Source: a virus. From it: a DNA stretch of 38,287 bases. The notes under the pieces are model-generated. The model saw nothing but the letters and a program-made list of their open reading frames with translations. It searched no databases and was not told the DNA's origin. Shown here one piece after another: positions 7,331-17,733 of the stretch. Numbering within the stretch: the stretch's first letter is position 1; each line of letters opens with the position of its first letter. The DNA lies in UHGV virus genome UHGV-1369766; one strand, given 5' to 3'. Position numbers and translations under genes: made by a program.

Positions 7331-7630
7331 TCAAATAAGTGGTTTGCTGCCTAATTTTATTTTCTGGCGACCAACACAAGTCACACCCATTTCACTGCGT
7401 GGCTTGCGGTAGTAAATACGGTTCTGTTTACGCTCGACTTCTTCTGCCTTCTTGCAGCGAAGGCTTCCGAGTGATGCTGCTTTGTCTGCTCTGACGCAAC
7501 CAGAGAGCTTTAGCGCAATTTTTCGCGCCAGTCGCTGCTCTTGCATTGCCTGTTCACGTTGAGCCTGTCTGCGTGCTCTGCGGCGATTTCTGGCGTTATC
7601 GTCAGCCAGATATGTAATGACTACTGTCAT
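7331..7630 (-). CDS. N: Antitermination protein N
   Basis: 99 aa; arginine-rich motif NARNRRRARRQAQ near the N-terminus; C-terminus ...YYRKPRSEMGVTCVGRQKIKLGSKPLI resembles my recollection of lambda N (...YSKPGERGITCSGRQKIKGKSIPLI); GGAGG RBS. Confidence 0.85.
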   Translation of the reverse strand: MTVVITYLADDNARNRRRARRQAQREQAMQEQRLARKIALKLSGCVRADKAASLGSLRCKKAEEVERKQNRIYYRKPRSEMGVTCVGRQKIKLGSKPLI

Positions 7631-8589: not shown

Positions 8590-9306
8590 TCAAACCAGCC
8601 TTAGTTTTGTCTCAATTGCAACGCCTATAATCTTGCAGTTTCCATTGATTGGCACGAGAGGCCATGCAGGATTAAGTCCCTTGAGGTATTTATTTCCGCC
8701 GTCGATTATCAGCTTCTTGAATGTTGCTTCGTTAGAGTCAGAAAGTTTTGCTATGACCAAGCTGCCGTTGATCGCCTCCCTTCCGGTATCGAAAAGAACG
8801 AATGTTCCCTCTGGAATGCTTAACCCAACCGGTGCCGTCATTGAATCACCTTCCACTTTAAGCCAGAACGCATTACCTTGAATATGCGCGTCAGACTCAA
8901 GCCAAACATCTATGTCTTTAATGGTGTATGGTTCGCATGCTTCACACCACGAGCCAGCCTGGATACTGCTTAACACCGGATACCTCTTTCCTGCTCTGTA
9001 TTCCCCTGCATACCTTACGTTGGCATCGCTCTTAAGGCTTTCTGCCTGTTCTGCAACCTTGGCAGCAATTGACTGGCTAAAATCAGCAATTGAGACTTGC
9101 AACAGTCGTGCAAAACCAGATGCAACCTCAACGTTTAGCGCGTTTCTGCCATTAAGATAATGCCCTACCGCTCCTTGGGTGATACCCAGTTCATCAGCGA
9201 TTGAGTATTGGGTTATTCCCAATTCTTTCTTTTTTGACTCATACAAAGCCTTAAGCCGCTTAGCGTCTTCGAGCTGTTCTGTCGTCAGTGATTTTTTATT
9301 TTCCAT
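8590..9306 (-). CDS. cI: CI-type prophage repressor (HTH plus LexA-like S24 peptidase domain)
   Basis: 238 aa; N-terminal HTH (QYSIADELGITQGAVGHYLNG), C-terminal autocleavage-type domain (...VEGDSM...KL...); divergent to cro across an operator-rich intergenic region. Confidence 0.9.
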   Translation of the reverse strand: MENKKSLTTEQLEDAKRLKALYESKKKELGITQYSIADELGITQGAVGHYLNGRNALNVEVASGFARLLQVSIADFSQSIAAKVAEQAESLKSDANVRYAGEYRAGKRYPVLSSIQAGSWCEACEPYTIKDIDVWLESDAHIQGNAFWLKVEGDSMTAPVGLSIPEGTFVLFDTGREAINGSLVIAKLSDSNEATFKKLIIDGGNKYLKGLNPAWPLVPINGNCKIIGVAIETKLRLV

Positions 9307-9383: not shown

Positions 9384-9412
9384 TTGTTCATGGTTAATAA
9401 CGGAGAGTGCAT

Positions 9413-9607
9413 ATGATTCGAATGACACTTGCCGATTACGCCAAAATCCATGGACAGGCTAAAGCAGCCAGTGACTTTGGTGTAATCCAGTGCGCTATCA
9501 GCAAGGCCATTCTGGCAGGTCGTAACATTATGGTTACGGTAAAGCCTGATGGCAGTGTGATTGGAGAGGAAGTTCGTCCTTTCCCAAGCAACAAGAAAAA
9601 CAAATAG
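9413..9607 (+). CDS. cro: Cro repressor
   Basis: [33 protein letters not shown]...FPSNKK closely parallels my recollection of lambda Cro; GGAGAG RBS before the ATG at 9413 (track ORF starts 6 nt earlier at GTG). Confidence 0.85.
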
Positions 9608-9715: not shown

Positions 9716-9994
9716 ATGCAACTTACAAGTACTCGCAAGAAAGCGAATGCAATTACAAGCAACATCCTGAATCGAATTGCTGTACGTGGTCAGCGAAAGG
9801 TTGCCGACGCGTTAGGGATTAATGAATCGCAAATTTCGCGATGGAAAGACAGCTTCATCCCAAAAATGGGAATGCTTCTGGCTGTTCTTGAATGGGGTGT
9901 TGAAGACGAGGAGTTGGCGGAACTGGCTAAGAAAGTAGCCAGAATGCTGACAAAAGAAAAAGCCCCGAAGAACGGCGAATTCTTCGAGGCCTGA
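9716..9994 (+). CDS. cII: CII transcriptional activator
   Basis: ...SQISRWK...IPKMGMLLAVLEWGV... matches the conserved lambda CII core as recalled; AAGGAA RBS. Confidence 0.85.
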   Translation: MQLTSTRKKANAITSNILNRIAVRGQRKVADALGINESQISRWKDSFIPKMGMLLAVLEWGVEDEELAELAKKVARMLTKEKAPKNGEFFEA

Positions 9995-10028: not shown

Positions 10029-10190
10029 ATGACAAAACGTCGTAAGAAATACCAGGAAAAAGAAGAGATTCGACACCCTGATTCACCTGAGGGATTAGTG
10101 GTAGCCGCAGCAAATAACAGGGCGTTCGCAGAGCGCCTTGTTGGTGTTTACAGACTAGCCAAAGCAGGAGTGAAACATGGGCGTCGTTAA
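10029..10190 (+). CDS. Hypothetical small basic protein (53 aa)
   Basis: ATG with AGGAG RBS; not in the ORF track (<60 aa); overlaps the annotated start of the following gene. Confidence 0.3.
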   Translation: MTKRRKKYQEKEEIRHPDSPEGLVVAAANNRAFAERLVGVYRLAKAGVKHGRR

Positions 10191-11067
10191 GTTAGCTGAT
10201 TACAGGCATAACCCTGTACAACATCAGGAGGCATCCAGTATGGGGTATGTCTCTATACACCGCCAGTTTATGGACAGCAGGCTCTATAAGGACTCTCAGG
10301 CAGTACATCTTTGGCTTCACTTAATCCTCAAGGCTAATCACGAATCTACTGTCGTCAATACGGATATCGGGCCGATAACTGTTGATCGCGGTCAGATGAT
10401 AACTGGACGCCCGTCGCTGGTCAGAGAAACATTCATCCCCGACAACAAAGTTCGGAGCTTATTACGGACTTTTGAGTCGAAAGGGATGCTTAATATTTGC
10501 TCGATGGGGAAGAAATTTAGCCTGTTTACAATCGTTAAATATGACGATTTTCAGGCAAAAAATTGTCCAACGGTTGTCCAACGGTTGTCCAACGCAAACA
10601 CCAGTAATGGCGCGGCTCTCAGCGGAGATTGTCCAACGGTTGTCCAACGGTTGTCCATAAACAATAATATAAATAATATCTCTAATACTGACGTATTAGA
10701 GAGTGCCACAGCAGACAAAAAGTCTGACAAGAAAAAACCTTCCGTCAGCTGTCAGGATGTTGTCGATGCTTACCACGAAATCCTTCCTGAAGCGCCAAGA
10801 ATCCGCGCACTGAATGACAAGCGTAAAAACCAGATCCGAACGTTCTGGCGCAAAGCCGGAGTGATAACCCGCCAGCTTGACGGGCATGGGTTCACGATGC
10901 AGGACTGGAGAAATTATTTGAGCTACGTAGGCGAAAATTGCCGATGGATGTTCGAAGAACGCCCAAACCATCAACGCGGAACCGTCTGGCACAAAAAGGG
11001 ATTTGATTTCCTGCTTAACGACAATACCTACCTGAAAGTTCGTGAGGGTGAACACGATGACCGATAA
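10177..11067 (+). CDS. Replication initiator (lambda O functional analogue) with embedded origin iterons
   Basis: 296 aa ORF; the 11-bp iterons at 10563-10659 lie inside the coding sequence (encoding the repeated CPTVVQRLS peptide), as in lambdoid ori-in-O arrangements; stop overlaps the helicase start. An alternative start at ATG 10239 (AGGAGG RBS) is possible. Confidence 0.75.
   Translation: MGVVKLADYRHNPVQHQEASSMGYVSIHRQFMDSRLYKDSQAVHLWLHLILKANHESTVVNTDIGPITVDRGQMITGRPSLVRETFIPDNKVRSLLRTFESKGMLNICSMGKKFSLFTIVKYDDFQAKNCPTVVQRLSNANTSNGAALSGDCPTVVQRLSINNNINNISNTDVLESATADKKSDKKKPSVSCQDVVDAYHEILPEAPRIRALNDKRKNQIRTFWRKAGVITRQLDGHGFTMQDWRNYLSYVGENCRWMFEERPNHQRGTVWHKKGFDFLLNDNTYLKVREGEHDDR
10563..10700. 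repeat. Origin of replication: six 11-bp iterons (TTGTCCAACGG) in two triplets plus an AT-rich tract
   Basis: Direct repeats at 10563-10594 and 10629-10659, then aaacaataatataaataatatct; embedded in the initiator gene. Confidence 0.8.
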
Positions 11068-12493
11068 TTTTTATGCGCCTCCCCATAGCATCGAGGCAGA
11101 GCAGGCGGTTATTGGTGGATTGCTTCTGGATGATGACAGCAGTGAGCGCGTCCAGAAAGTTCTGGCGATGCTGAAGCCTGATTCATTTTACAGCCGACCA
11201 CACAAAATCATTTTCGAAGAAATAACCAGAATGCACCGGGAGCAAAAGCCAGTAGATGGCCTGACGCTTTTCGATGAACTGGAGCGTAAATCGTTAACGG
11301 CGTCTGTTGGCGGTTTTGCTTATATCGCTGAGATCGCAAAGAACACGCCAAGCGCCGCAAACATCGTTGCCTATGCAATGCAGGTTCGCGAAACCGCAAT
11401 GGAACGCTACGCCATCAACCGCATGACTGAAGCGACGGAATTGCTCTATTCCCGCAACGGAATGACTGCGACGCAGAAGTACGAAGCTATTCAGGCGATT
11501 TTCACGCAACTGACAGACCATGCAAAAACCGGATCGCGTCGCGGCCTTCGCTCATTTGGTGAGGTCATGGAAGACTGGGTTAGCGACCTTGAGAAGCGAT
11601 TTGACCCGTCAGGCGAACAACGAGGAATGAGCACAGGGATCCCATCGCTGGACAGGATGCTGTCACCGAAAGGTCTGGTGAAAGGCTCTCTGTTTGTCAT
11701 TGGCGCTCGCCCTAAGATGGGGAAAACGACGCTATACAGCCAGATGGCAATCAACTGCGCAGTGCATGAGAAAAAGCCCGCTCTGATGTTCAGCCTTGAA
11801 ATGCCCGGTGACCAGATACTGGAAAAACTGGTAGGACAGAAGTCAGGTGTTAACCCGAATATTTTTTACCTTCCGGCGACAAATGACGCTGATGACGGCT
11901 ATCAGGGTGATTACGATGGTGACTTCAACAGGGCGATCGAAACAGCCAATCGCTTGAGTGAAATCGACCTGCTTTACATCGACGACACGCCGGGATTATC
12001 TCTGGCTCAAATCGTCAGCGAAAGTCGTCGAATCAAGCGAGAAAAAGGATGTGTTGGCATGATTCTGGTCGATTACCTGACACTAATGACTGCTGAGAAG
12101 GCCGATCGCAACGACCTTGCTTACGGCATGATCACCAAAGGACTGAAGAACCTTGCCAAAGAGCTTGATTGCGTTGTTGTGCTTCTGACACAGCTTAACC
12201 GCGCACTGGAAAGTCGAACCAATAAACGCCCATTACCAAGTGACTCACGAGATACAGGGCAGATTGAACAGGATTGCGATTATTGGGTGGGGATCCATCG
12301 TGAAGGTGCTTTTGATGACAGTGTTCCACCTGGTGAAACCGAACTAATCCTTCGTCTCAATCGTCATGGCAATACCGGCACGGTGTATTGCATTCAGGCA
12401 AATGGCGCTATTTATGACACAGACCAACAGTCCGCTGAAATGCGCCGCCGTGAACGCGAGGAACCGCAGTCCAAGAAGAAAGGAGGATTCTGA
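11057..12493 (+). CDS. Replicative DNA helicase (DnaB family)
   Basis: N-terminal SIEAEQAVIGGLLLD motif, Walker A GARPKMGKTT, DnaB-like C-terminal motifs; start ATG at 11057 preceded by GAGGGTGAA. Confidence 0.85.
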   Translation: MTDNFYAPPHSIEAEQAVIGGLLLDDDSSERVQKVLAMLKPDSFYSRPHKIIFEEITRMHREQKPVDGLTLFDELERKSLTASVGGFAYIAEIAKNTPSAANIVAYAMQVRETAMERYAINRMTEATELLYSRNGMTATQKYEAIQAIFTQLTDHAKTGSRRGLRSFGEVMEDWVSDLEKRFDPSGEQRGMSTGIPSLDRMLSPKGLVKGSLFVIGARPKMGKTTLYSQMAINCAVHEKKPALMFSLEMPGDQILEKLVGQKSGVNPNIFYLPATNDADDGYQGDYDGDFNRAIETANRLSEIDLLYIDDTPGLSLAQIVSESRRIKREKGCVGMILVDYLTLMTAEKADRNDLAYGMITKGLKNLAKELDCVVVLLTQLNRALESRTNKRPLPSDSRDTGQIEQDCDYWVGIHREGAFDDSVPPGETELILRLNRHGNTGTVYCIQANGAIYDTDQQSAEMRRREREEPQSKKKGGF

Positions 12494-12521
12494 TGACCAT
12501 CTACATCACTGAGCTAATAAC

Positions 12522-12553
12522 AGGCCTGCTGGTAATCGCAGGCCTTTTTATTT
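12522..12553 (+). terminator. Intrinsic terminator after the helicase gene (tR2-like position)
   Basis: AGGCCTGC-tggtaatc-GCAGGCCT hairpin followed by TTTTTATTT. Confidence 0.6.
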
Positions 12554-12568
12554 GGGGGAGAGTAAATC

Positions 12569-12775
12569 GTGGCTGAGTTTATGCTCGTCGCATTCAAATG
12601 CGTTGGCGTTGGATGGATTCTTCTGACGTTTTTTATTGTTCTGCATAGCTACATTCGTCTTGTGAATGACGGCAAAGACCCATGGTATACGTTGTTTGGC
12701 GCTGCATTTGTCTGGGTGATTATCGGTGTTATGCCTGTTGTCGTAGCAAAAATGGCGTGGCGTTTTGTGAGTTGA
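12569..12775 (+). CDS. Small two-helix membrane protein
   Basis: 68 aa, GTG start with GGGGGAG RBS; hydrophobic; preferred over the overlapping minus-strand ORF because all neighbours are on the plus strand. Confidence 0.4.
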   Translation: MAEFMLVAFKCVGVGWILLTFFIVLHSYIRLVNDGKDPWYTLFGAAFVWVIIGVMPVVVAKMAWRFVS

Positions 12776-12792
12776 ACTGAGGGTAAGTATCG

Positions 12793-13056
12793 ATGGACGA
12801 ATCAAGAAAGCAGTTTGAAGAATGGTTTGAAAATTACACCGGATGTGATCCTAAAAATAAAATATACGCCAATATGGTTGAGATGTATTGGCAAGCGTGG
12901 CAGGCATCGCGAGCAGCTATCGAGATTGAGCTGCAAAAGCCAAAGAAAGGCCCACTTCCCGGTGATTATCACATTGGCTATGACTCAGGTGCAGAATCGC
13001 AATACGAAAGCGATGTAGAGGCTATCCGCGCCGCTGGAATCAAAGTGAAGGAGTGA
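12793..13056 (+). CDS. Hypothetical protein with Ea22-like C-terminal motif
   Basis: 87 aa; GAGGG RBS; C-terminus ...EAIRAAGIKVKE echoes the C-terminus of the Ea22-like protein at 2292..2969. Confidence 0.5.
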   Translation: MDESRKQFEEWFENYTGCDPKNKIYANMVEMYWQAWQASRAAIEIELQKPKKGPLPGDYHIGYDSGAESQYESDVEAIRAAGIKVKE

Positions 13057-13244
13057 GCATGAGTCGACGAAGTAGCTTTTTGGGGTTTGTAATATTCCTG
13101 TTCTGCACTGGTTACATCGTAATCTGGTCAATTTCGAACATTGACCGTGGCGTGGCATATCTCATTGTAATGTTCTTTCCTTTGTTTCTTGGGTGGTACG
13201 CCGCAAGGTTGCTGGAAGAATGGGGTTACAGGCATAAAAAATAA
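13053..13244 (+). CDS. Small two-helix membrane protein
   Basis: 63 aa; AAGGAG RBS; start overlaps the upstream stop. Confidence 0.5.
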   Translation: MSMSRRSSFLGFVIFLFCTGYIVIWSISNIDRGVAYLIVMFFPLFLGWYAARLLEEWGYRHKK

Positions 13245-13301
13245 AGGAGTGTTCAGTGAAGCAAACCCTTTTTTATTGGATTAAGAACGAGGGGGATCCT
13301 G

Positions 13302-13514
13302 ATGGACACCGTTAACGGAATGTGTTCAGACGCACCGCGTGCCAAAAAATGTAAATGCGGAAAATCACCGACAATATTCGACATGGAGAACGGGTGCCAA
13401 ATCTACTGCGCTAACCACGCTGCTGTGGCGGCCGCGAATTATCGCAGTGCGGTAACGGAGTGGAATAACATGAAATCTGTTAGAGAGGGAAGTCATGAAA
13501 AAACTAACCTTTGA
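13302..13514 (+). CDS. Hypothetical Cys-rich small protein
   Basis: 70 aa; GAGGGGG RBS; CKCG...C...C pattern. Confidence 0.5.
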   Translation: MDTVNGMCSDAPRAKKCKCGKSPTIFDMENGCQIYCANHAAVAAANYRSAVTEWNNMKSVREGSHEKTNL

Positions 13515-13935
13515 AATTCGATCTCCAGCACATCAGCAAAACGCTATTCACGCAGTACAGCAAATCCTTCCAGACCCAACCAAACCAATCGTAGTAACCA
13601 TTCAGGAACGCAACCGCAGCTTAGACCAAAACAGGAAGCTATGGGCCTGCTTAGGTGACGTTTCTCGTCAGGTTGAATGGCATGGTCGCTGGCTGGATGC
13701 AGAAAGCTGGAAGTGTGTGTTTACCGCAGCATTAAAGCAGCAGGATGTTGTTCCTAACCTTGCCGGGAATGGCTTTGTGGTAATAGGCCAGTCAACCAGC
13801 AGGATGCGTGTAAACGAATTTGCGGAGCTATTAGAGCTTATACAGGCATTCGGTACAGAGCGTGGCGTTAAGTGGTCAGACGAAGCGAGACTGGCTCTGG
13901 AGTGGAAAGCGAGATGGGGAGATCGGGCTGCATGA
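13495..13935 (+). CDS. ninB: NinB (Orf) recombination protein
   Basis: MKKLTFEIRSPAHQQNAIHAVQQILPDPTKPIVVTIQERNRSLDQNRKLWACLGDV... is near-identical to my recollection of lambda NinB. Confidence 0.9.
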   Translation: MKKLTFEIRSPAHQQNAIHAVQQILPDPTKPIVVTIQERNRSLDQNRKLWACLGDVSRQVEWHGRWLDAESWKCVFTAALKQQDVVPNLAGNGFVVIGQSTSRMRVNEFAELLELIQAFGTERGVKWSDEARLALEWKARWGDRAA

Positions 13936-16172: not shown

Positions 16173-16357
16173 ACGCCACAATTCAAACGATACCAGAGCT
16201 TCTTATCCAGACACGAGGCAATCAGACCGAAGTGGCAAGGATGCTTTCCTGCGCAAGAGGAACAGTGCTCAAGTACAACCGAGACAGTAAAGGCGAGCGT
16301 CACGTAATAGTTAACGGCGTCCTGATGGTCAAACAGGGAAAAAGGGGAAGGCCATGA
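16169..16357 (+). CDS. ninH: NinH-like protein
   Basis: ...GNQTEVARMLSCARGTVLKY... resembles lambda NinH (...GNQTEVARRLKCSRGTVRKY...) as recalled. Confidence 0.7.
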   Translation: MNATIQTIPELLIQTRGNQTEVARMLSCARGTVLKYNRDSKGERHVIVNGVLMVKQGKRGRP

Positions 16358-16977
16358 GACTCGAAAGCGTAGCTAAATTTCATTCGCCAAAAAGCCCGAT
16401 GATGAGCGACTCACCACGGGCCACGGCTTCTGACTCTCTTTCCGGTACTGATGTGATGGCTGCTATGGGGATGGCGCAATCACAAGCCGGATTCGGAATG
16501 GCTGCATTCTGCGGTAAGCACGAACTCAGCCAGAACGACAAACAAAAGGCTATCAACTATCTGATGCAATTTGCACACAAGGTATCGGGGAAATACCGTG
16601 GTGTGGCAAAGCTTGAAGGAAATACTAAGGCAAAGGTACTGCAAGTGCTCGCAACATTCGCTTATGCGGATTATTGCCGTAGTGCCGCGACGCCGGGCGC
16701 AAGATGCAGAGATTGCCACGGTACAGGCCGTGCGGTTGATATATCAAAAACAGAGCTGTGGGGGAGAGTTGTTGAGAAAGAATGCGGAAGATGCAAAGGT
16801 GTCGGCTATTCAAGAATGCCAGCAAGCGCCGCATATCGCGCTGTAACGATGCTAATCCCAAACCTTACCCAACCCACCTGGTCACGCACTGTTAAGCCGC
16901 TGTATGACGCTCTGGTGGTGCAATGCCACAAAGAAGAGTCAATCGCAGACAACATATTGAATGCGGTCACACGTTAG
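16354..16977 (+). CDS. Q: Late-gene antiterminator Q
   Basis: 207 aa; appears near-identical to lambda Q as I recall it (MRLESVAKFHSPKSPMMSDSPRATASDSL...); followed by a PR'-like promoter. Confidence 0.9.
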   Translation: MRLESVAKFHSPKSPMMSDSPRATASDSLSGTDVMAAMGMAQSQAGFGMAAFCGKHELSQNDKQKAINYLMQFAHKVSGKYRGVAKLEGNTKAKVLQVLATFAYADYCRSAATPGARCRDCHGTGRAVDISKTELWGRVVEKECGRCKGVGYSRMPASAAYRAVTMLIPNLTQPTWSRTVKPLYDALVVQCHKEESIADNILNAVTR

Positions 16978-17409: not shown

Positions 17410-17733
17410 ATGAAGATGCCTGAAAAACATGACCTGTTAGCCGCCATTCTCGCGGCAAAGGAACAAGGCATCGGGGCAATCCTTGCGTTTGCAATGGCGT
17501 ACCTTCGCGGCAGATATAATGGCGGTGCGTTTACAAAAACACTAATCGACGCAACGATGTGCGCCATTATCGCCTGGTTCATTCGTGACCTTCTCGACTT
17601 CGCCGGACTAAGTAGCAATCTCGCTTATATAACGAGCGTGTTCATCGGCTACATCGGTACTGACTCGATTGGTTCGCTTATCAAACGCTTCGCTGCTAAA
17701 AAAGCCGGAGTAGAAGATGGTGGAAATCAATAA
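17410..17733 (+). CDS. S: Holin (lambda S type, dual-start motif MKMPEKH)
   Basis: 107 aa, near-identical to lambda S as recalled; Met-Lys-Met dual start typical of the S107/S105 holin/antiholin pair. Confidence 0.9.

Follow-up and report, generated by a model that had tools for sequence, protein, structure and literature searches.

The DNA examined here is a 38,287-nt window (the whole stretch that was analyzed) on one strand of UHGV virus genome UHGV-1369766, and the locus of interest within it is the junction of the replication genes with the nin region in a lambdoid, HK620/P22-like phage. This segment of the early-right operon, between the replication and nin genes, is occupied by a cluster of small open reading frames (ORFs), the first of which has 27 codons and encloses an intrinsic terminator. 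A first-pass annotation of the window, made from the letters alone, had singled out this ORF, together with two ORFs for small membrane proteins behind it, as possible toxins, holin-like modulators or exclusion factors. We identify the 27-codon ORF as ninA and its terminator as tR2, and examine what the ORF and the genes that follow it are likely to do. The features at the junction are the following.

11042-12493, plus strand: DnaB-like replicative helicase of the HK620 'P' type (Pfam DnaB_C, E = 3e-60, and DnaB, E = 6e-32; PHROG 19)
12480-12487, plus strand: Shine-Dalgarno (SD) sequence of ninA, AAGGAGGA, within the helicase coding sequence and 5 nt before the ninA ATG
12493-12576, plus strand: ninA, a 27-codon mini-gene (MTIYITELITGLLVIAGLFIWGRVNRG) containing tR2 (PHROG 5907; annotated in HK620, P22 and Sf6)
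12522-12553, plus strand: intrinsic terminator tR2 inside ninA, a stem-loop AGGCCTGCTGGTAATCGCAGGCCT at 12522-12545 followed by the U-tract TTTTATTT
12569-12775, plus strand: orf68, conserved membrane protein with two transmembrane helices and a GTG start (PHROG 1165)
12793-13056, plus strand: orf87, acidic, soluble, hydrophilic protein (PHROG 343, E = 3e-30)
13059-13244, plus strand: orf61, rare two-helix membrane protein whose ATG is preceded by AAGGAG at a distance of 5 nt (the 63-aa ORF of the first-pass annotation)
13256-13315, plus strand: chimeric 19-codon mini-ORF MKQTLFYWIKNEGDPDGHR, recognized by alignment to ninA of HK544 and Gally
13302-13514, plus strand: orf70, small cysteine-rich soluble protein (PHROG 6308, E = 1.6e-53)
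13495-13935, plus strand: ninB (the Orf recombination mediator), start of the canonical nin gene chain (Pfam NinB, E = 1.2e-54; PHROG 72)

The 27-codon ORF is NinA, a long-known mini-gene of lambda-like phages, and the hairpin that it encloses is tR2. Its product, in which hydropathy analysis finds one hydrophobic stretch, matches PHROG 5907 over residues 1-26 (E = 1.3e-18), is identical to the 'NinA protein' of phage HK630 (UniRef K7P6R4) and differs from the HK620-type ninA annotation at 3 of its 27 residues. The records of HK620 and P22 annotate ninA with 'tR2' marked inside it, ninA/tR2 is annotated in phage 21 too, and the Sf6 record gives the ORF as gene 45, 'similar to phage 21 NinA', overlain by tR2 and by 'boundary sequence bsq6'. 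The first-pass annotation was right about the ORF, its AAGGAGGA ribosome-binding site and the terminator hairpin that it spans, all of which are present as described, but wrong to call the ORF unannotated, a label that does fit E. coli genomes annotated with the NCBI Prokaryotic Genome Annotation Pipeline (PGAP) and the RefSeq record of lambda. In lambda the ORF is nevertheless present, its ATG overlapping the ren stop (ATGA) and its stop overlapping the ninB start (ATGA). In the window the arrangement is equivalent: the 3' end of the helicase gene holds the ninA SD, the helicase TGA shares one base with the ninA ATG (TGATG), and the GTG start of orf68 overlaps the ninA stop by 8 nt. The ORF stands where ninA is found: it comes immediately behind the last gene of the replication group (or ren) and ahead of the nin genes, its start and stop overlap or abut the neighbors, and the same junction grammar recurs in lambda, P22 and more than 200 loci.

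Taken together, ninA and tR2 form a 'boundary' module of about 80 bp, which lambda, P22, HK620, Sf6 and Stx phages share with many prophages. The module, queried as 81 nt, matched 421 of 50,697 phage records, and some part of a 921-bp query (12400-13320) matched 2076 of 5426 complete E. coli genomes. The gene is counted among the non-essential nin genes, which are packed with ATGA overlaps (PMC8022706; PMC3349717; PMC5630979). Maps of lambdoid phages have shown NinA for some 40 years, and the literature searched assigns it no function.

The terminator hairpin is strong. Its stem has eight pairs, six of them G-C, around an 8-nt loop according to the terminator scan, and its predicted fold of -16.1 kcal/mol (z = -3.4) was equaled by 0 of 200 shuffled sequences. 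The hairpin and U-tract are identical in sequence to tR2 of lambda and P22, and for the identical lambda tR2 a termination efficiency near 0.9 was measured with reporters in E. coli (PMC4824070). The z-score of this hairpin, the conservation of the module in the 421 phage records and the substitution rates of the downstream genes (see below) indicate that the features of the locus exceed chance. Another hairpin with a T-run, inside orf68 (12605-12630), was considered as a second terminator; it folds weakly (-8.8 kcal/mol, z = -1.8; equaled by 10 of 200 shuffled sequences) and is probably a chance occurrence. Among variants of tR2 itself, an Escherichia sp. (E1V33; locus L269, 1445-1480) has a C to T change in the 5' arm (GGC to GGT) that leaves the NinA residue unaltered and the base pair intact as G-U, a single and anecdotal case. 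In the Klebsiella phage phiKp_30 (L129, 401-490), the ninA ORF is kept (MTIYITELVTGMLVIAGLLFVCKQNRF) over a stem with a mismatch and a weakened U-tract (fold z = +0.27), the sole case seen of the ORF without a good terminator.

By the comparative and published reporter evidence, which is indirect, translation of ninA is well supported, whereas an essential role is not. We compared 120 IMG/VR loci with the exact lambda-type hairpin and 109 with a second hairpin type, plus named phages (about 230 loci). On the 5' side, seven different gene ends (lambda ren, the P22 gene 12 type, the HK620 helicase type and four others) precede the conserved block, which in each case opens precisely at the ATG, and an SD-like 4-mer lies 5-10 nt before the ninA ATG in 7 of 7, although these 3' ends are not otherwise related. 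Given that 7.6% of ATG triplets in the window are preceded by such a motif, this corresponds to P of about 1.5e-8 if the seven contexts are independent, or 2.6e-6 if only five are. On the 3' side, ninA is followed by at least eight unrelated genes, including NinB, the orf68 family, an Sf6 gp46-like membrane protein, an orf87-like protein and four others, and in every downstream class the ninA stop either overlaps the next start (ATGA, GTGA, GTGGCTGA, ATGGTTAA; 8-nt overlaps) or abuts it (TAAATG). The first 22 residues of NinA are nearly constant, while the tail changes to fit the 3' junction.

The second hairpin type belongs to a second ninA allele, found in HK97, HK544, Gally and IME10, which shares the first 10 codons and encloses another terminator, GGGGCTATTTACACAGTAGCCCC followed by U6 (-12.6 kcal/mol, z = -3.5; about 100 loci). 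Read in the same frame, it encodes MTIYITELITGAIYTVALFYWIKNEGDPDGHR (HK97 gp56), with a 14-nt overlap into orf70. Only the frame in use is at once open and hydrophobic in each allele, and the ORF is intact in 120 of 126 lambda-type and 102 of 108 HK97-type loci. NCBI records of E. coli, Shigella and Salmonella widely give the 32-aa product of the HK97-type allele as 'histone H1', evidently a mistake in annotation that has spread. Experimental evidence on translation comes from lambda: using its natural sequence, Li et al. 2016 (PMC4824070) described the NinA initiation site as 'not weak' and found that silencing the ribosome-binding site or the AUG of NinA restored expression of an upstream reporter, the halved expression being ascribed to non-stop messages ended at tR2 and cleared by trans-translation.

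The locus also records how the module is recombined. IME10 shares the backbone of the window and has the order helicase, intact HK97-type ninA, orf70. In the window, the first 32 nt of ninA run instead into the lambda-type tR2, followed by orf68, orf87, orf61 and the first codons of a Gally-type ninB, and the sequence returns to the HK97-type ninA at about 13267-13270, within the 3' hairpin arm. Compared with an IME10-like backbone, the window has thus gained a mosaic cassette, orf68-orf87-orf61, that separates the ninA/tR2 module from orf70-ninB. About 760 bp were exchanged, with one joint in the shared 5' segment of ninA and the other, illegitimate, inside the old hairpin, in a typical lambdoid mosaic event. 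At the 3' joint lies the chimeric mini-ORF of 19 codons, in which an SD, a GTG start and the first codons of the Gally-type ninB are joined in frame to the last 15 codons of the HK97-type ninA, of which only this 3' half survives in the window (13270-13315). The chimeric ORF has lost the hairpin, shows no stable fold (z = +0.29) and overlaps the orf70 start by 14 nt.

Our preferred interpretation, in which we have moderate confidence, is that ninA is translated as a relay acting in cis and that orf68 and orf61 of the cassette are delayed-early accessory membrane genes. Ribosomes that finish the helicase, or that load at the SD in the 3' end of its gene, would start at the overlapping ninA ATG, and, on transcripts carried past tR2 by N-type antitermination, they would translate through the terminator sequence and then stop on top of the start codon of the next gene. 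NinA would act mainly in cis: by relaying translation it would hold the tightly coupled 'chain of interlinked genes' (Kroger and Hobom 1982) together across the terminator, and the relay would stay continuous whichever gene recombination puts on either side. A role in cis agrees with two findings: the tail is free to vary while the stop always lands on the next start, and the chimeric ORF at 13256-13315 still overlaps orf70 by 14 nt although its hairpin is gone. Transcripts that do end at tR2 are expected to do so at about 12552-12554, before the ninA stop at 12574, so that they would be non-stop messages for ribosomes starting at 12493; this prediction follows directly from the sequence, and Li et al. 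drew the same inference.

Several points weigh against this interpretation. The translation experiment used a lambda reporter construct and not this phage, and NinA translation cut tR2 efficiency in that reporter by only about 10% (PMC4824070). Most of the sequences compared are so alike (at least 95%) that intactness of the ORF alone is weak evidence, and the ratio of synonymous to non-synonymous changes in ninA codons 2-10 (7 vs 6, P = 0.03; control frame P = 0.09) is a marginal signal on which we do not rely. Roughly 5% of the loci have lost ninA (in six, tR2 abuts the stop of an HNH endonuclease gene; in five, the start has suffered a 1-nt deletion; in one, there is a nonsense codon), and the phages concerned evidently manage without it. 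Downstream genes have an SD of their own (GGGGGAGAG), so a relay is not strictly required. Finally, a pure relay needs no conserved hydrophobic peptide, yet both alleles use the sole transmembrane-like frame.

The last of these points is the starting place of the alternative that survives best, which we nonetheless consider unlikely: that NinA is a functional single-pass membrane micropeptide acting in trans in the inner membrane, possibly together with orf68, and that its coding merely shares space with tR2. Both alleles are read in the sole frame that yields about 20 hydrophobic residues without a break and basic residues after them (TGLLVIAGLFIWGR, TGAIYTVALFYWIK), the other frames over the terminator alleles giving stops or hydrophilic sequence; however, the GC stem and the U-tract directly supply part of this hydrophobicity. 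Within residues 1-10 (MTIYITELIT), changes are mostly synonymous or conservative, with the Leu8 codon occurring in five synonymous forms and position 9 being I, V or M, but the signal of purifying selection on NinA is statistically marginal, and the C-terminal tail varies freely (GRGKS, GRVNRG, GRVIGGFKK, IKNEGDPDGHR). In-frame NinA-orf68 fusions of 93-94 aa occur in Salmonella, one form on 47 contigs, and would be topologically coherent by the positive-inside rule; they could also be slippage products of a G5 run and may be neutral. The Klebsiella phage that retains the ORF over a degenerate hairpin fits a function of the peptide itself, whereas the nin region is treated as non-essential and no NinA phenotype is reported in the literature searched.

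A composite of these possibilities would make the module a dual-coded device by which ribosomes 'read' what becomes of the early-right transcript. Non-stop ninA messages ended at tR2 would, through trans-translation, destabilize the mRNA of the replication genes, while antiterminated transcripts would yield full-length NinA and carry ribosomes into the nin genes, with NinA perhaps serving as a membrane partner of orf68, a possibility hinted at by the natural fusions of the two. As a whole, we regard this reading as quite improbable.

We think it highly doubtful that the ORF is incidental, and that the 80 bp or so are instead non-coding, consisting of the terminator and a 29-nt spacer that holds ribosomes stopped at the upstream gene far enough off the hairpin for termination to be complete, and doubling as a patch of homology (a 'boundary sequence') at which mosaic phages recombine. 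The efficiency of tR2 does depend on its distance from the upstream stop, reaching a plateau of about 0.9 beyond about 30 bp and being about 0.8 at 18 bp with the natural lambda sequence (Li et al., PMC4824070), and the distance in the window is 28 nt. A role in recombination agrees with the annotation of the segment in Sf6 as bsq6 and with the left joint of the cassette, which in the window falls within the shared 5' segment of ninA; loci of the Stx2 phage 1717 type have tR2 without the 5' part of ninA, and retention of an ORF among sequences that are mostly at least 95% similar proves little by itself. What a spacer leaves unexplained is an SD at the right spacing in seven different upstream genes, the at least eight unrelated downstream genes that begin exactly at the ORF stop, and the preservation of the frame over a second, unrelated hairpin; moreover, the ninA start site was active in the reporter (PMC4824070).

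The genes behind ninA are real. Both orf68 and orf61 are under purifying selection, with a median ratio of non-synonymous to synonymous substitution rates (dN/dS) for orf68 of 0.35 in frame vs 0.79 and 0.98 out of frame, and a dN/dS for orf61 of 0.17 at a proportion of synonymous differences (pS) of 0.56. The first-pass annotation had described two-helix membrane proteins of 68 and 63 aa after the 27-codon ORF. Hydropathy analysis does find two hydrophobic segments in each, but orf87, which lies between them, had been overlooked, and the second protein most likely has 61 residues, starting at the ATG at 13059 and not at 13053, given the AAGGAG 5 nt upstream and the fact that all homologues are called from this ATG.

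The match of the orf68 product to PHROG 1165 spans the whole protein (E = 1.6e-38; residues 1-68 aligned with positions 1-68 of the profile), and an AlphaFold2 model shows a two-helix hairpin (mean predicted local distance difference test score, pLDDT, 89), for which a Foldseek search of the PDB returned only generic helical-hairpin matches with E > 3. Its homologues form 43 clusters at 50-99% identity, mostly of 68 aa, with an invariant C-terminal motif, P-V-x-x-A-K-M-A-W-x-F, and 107 phage records contain the gene, among them those of HK620, H-19B, HK022, Stx2a phages and P22-like phages of Salmonella. A family profile run against 1.84 billion representatives retrieved only 25 relatives, all of 39-109 aa and none of them multidomain. 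The original HK620 record (AF335538; L001, 1677-1884) leaves orf68 unannotated, though it is conserved and under purifying selection. Among the NinA-orf68 fusions, three from Salmonella enterica (P0013, P0014 and P0018) have three predicted transmembrane helices and an apparent 1-nt change in the G-run after the U-tract.

The orf87 product gave no match to Pfam PF26207 (Phage_phiTE_015) at E <= 1, and is 31% identical (E = 1e-8) to an 87-aa PF26207 protein of a distant phage (L246), a similarity that marks it as a probable distant relative of the phiTE_015/Sf6 gp48 family. In that phage (2501-2952), an orf68-like gene of 63 aa follows the replication genes and is itself followed by the gene for the 87-aa protein. 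The recurrence of the orf68-like/orf87-like pair indicates that the two travel together and suggests a conserved two-gene unit. By comparison orf61 is rare, with only four phage records and four homologue clusters, all of 61 aa or shorter, and no PHROG match; a copy with 74% identity stands directly after the DnaB helicase gene in another locus (L126). PGAP leaves orf61 and orf70 unannotated too in E. coli (strain 44; L003, 1594-2596).

The surroundings of the junction are those of a lambdoid phage, with the following features placed upstream and downstream.

7331-7630, minus strand: N-like antiterminator
8590-9306, minus strand: CI
9407-9607: Cro
9716-9994: CII
10177-11067: O-like initiator
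16354-16977: Q
17410-17733: holin, after Q

Further downstream of NinB lie a DNA methyltransferase, an Ant/Roi-like protein and RusA. The orf70 family, whose gene adjoins ninB in the window, is the usual next gene after the HK97-type ninA, in most of the 97 IMG/VR loci examined. A scan for NinB across species-representative genomes returned mostly lambda DNA contaminating unrelated assemblies: the hits in Pseudomonas, Oceanobacillus, Shewanella, Bradyrhizobium and others (L248-L261 among them) are on low-coverage contigs with 99%-identical NinB, some of about 48.4-48.5 kb, and are almost certainly phage lambda DNA.

As regards expression, a consensus scan, which may miss weak or other promoters, found no sigma-70-like site on the plus strand between 12500 and 13500. 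From the lack of a promoter-like site nearby and from their position past tR2, orf68 and orf61 are probably delayed-early genes, made only on readthrough of tR2. Their products would be inner-membrane proteins made in the lytic cycle once tR2 is read through, and may be non-essential accessory proteins that act on the host envelope.

The roles that the first-pass annotation proposed for the small hydrophobic ORFs, as toxins, holin-like lysis modulators or superinfection-exclusion factors, have to be weighed against this background. Part of the description held up: the reading frames are conserved in homologous regions, translation signals are present, and the products are small, with one or two transmembrane helices, a general shape shared by several proteins that phages use for exclusion or lysis timing. 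The slot immediately behind ninA holds different, unrelated small membrane-protein genes in other phages, for instance a gp46-like gene in Sf6 and an ORF of 60 aa in Gally; the count of about 4 membrane-protein families among the roughly 10 in the post-ninA slot, a tally made without a background rate, gives no sign of enrichment. The Gally ORF (L130/L243, 180-362), which has two transmembrane helices and is unannotated in its record, was considered as an orf68 homologue; hhalign against the orf68 family shows no homology, and we treat it as an analogue in the same slot. In Sf6 (L133, 984-1310), the gp46-like gene in this slot encodes a protein with an N-terminal transmembrane helix.

The proposed roles find no counterpart in the family searches. 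Searches of Pfam, NCBIfam, PADLOC and PDB sequences with all five small ORFs gave sub-threshold noise only, with no similarity to any defense, holin, toxin or structural family and no PADLOC match at E <= 1, and orf68 and orf61 matched no characterized family in these collections. No holin PHROG or Pfam family was matched by ninA, orf68 or orf61, and some 4.2 kb separate the genes from the lysis cassette downstream, with its holin at 17410-17733. As for a type I toxin-antitoxin system, no Rfam family was found anywhere in the window, no Pfam or NCBIfam toxin was matched, and promoter-like sites on the opposite strand were no commoner than in shuffles (6 vs 5.7), with none placed for an antisense RNA to ninA or orf68. 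Classical prophage exclusion is disfavored by the position of the genes in a repressed early-right operon, past tR2 and lacking a promoter-like site of their own, which makes expression from a lysogen unlikely. With no family similarity, a location outside the lysis cassette and no promoter-like site of their own, the ORFs are very improbable candidates for toxins, lysis modulators or exclusion factors.

The module can be set beside known systems. NinA of lambda (Kroger and Hobom 1982, as cited in PMC4824070) has the same first 22 residues, the same hairpin and U-tract, the same position between the last replication/ren gene and the nin genes, and overlapping start and stop. It differs in its tail (GRGKS in lambda, GRVNRG here), in the next gene (ninB with an ATGA overlap in lambda, orf68 with the 8-nt overlap GTGGCTGA here) and in the upstream junction, which is an ATGA overlap in lambda and here TGATG with an HK620-type DnaB helicase gene and the stronger SD AAGGAGGA. 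The 32-aa NinA of the HK97 gp56 type agrees in its first 10 codons, frame, position, enclosed intrinsic terminator and overlap with the next gene, orf70; the middle and tail of the peptide differ because the hairpin sequence (GGGGCTATTTACACAGTAGCCCC) differs. Leader-peptide attenuators, such as pyrBI and the leaders of amino-acid operons, also place a short translated ORF over an intrinsic terminator, so that ribosome position can in principle affect the hairpin. Unlike them, ninA has neither an alternative antiterminator hairpin nor a regulatory codon run, its readthrough is expected to depend on the N-type antiterminator (7331-7630), and translation of NinA shifted tR2 efficiency by only about 10% in the lambda reporter (PMC4824070).

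The locus is thus essentially ordinary, a known module and not a new system: its central element, NinA/tR2, is already known and named, and the flanking membrane-protein genes are real, conserved phage accessory genes that are uncharacterized, with orf68 and orf61 adding to the large pool of such genes in phages. NinA is among the clearest examples in nature of a translated ORF with an intrinsic terminator inside it. If ninA does act as a relay, or becomes a non-stop message at tR2, it would show how phages hold translational coupling across a regulatory terminator, and would tie the expression of the replication genes to antitermination.

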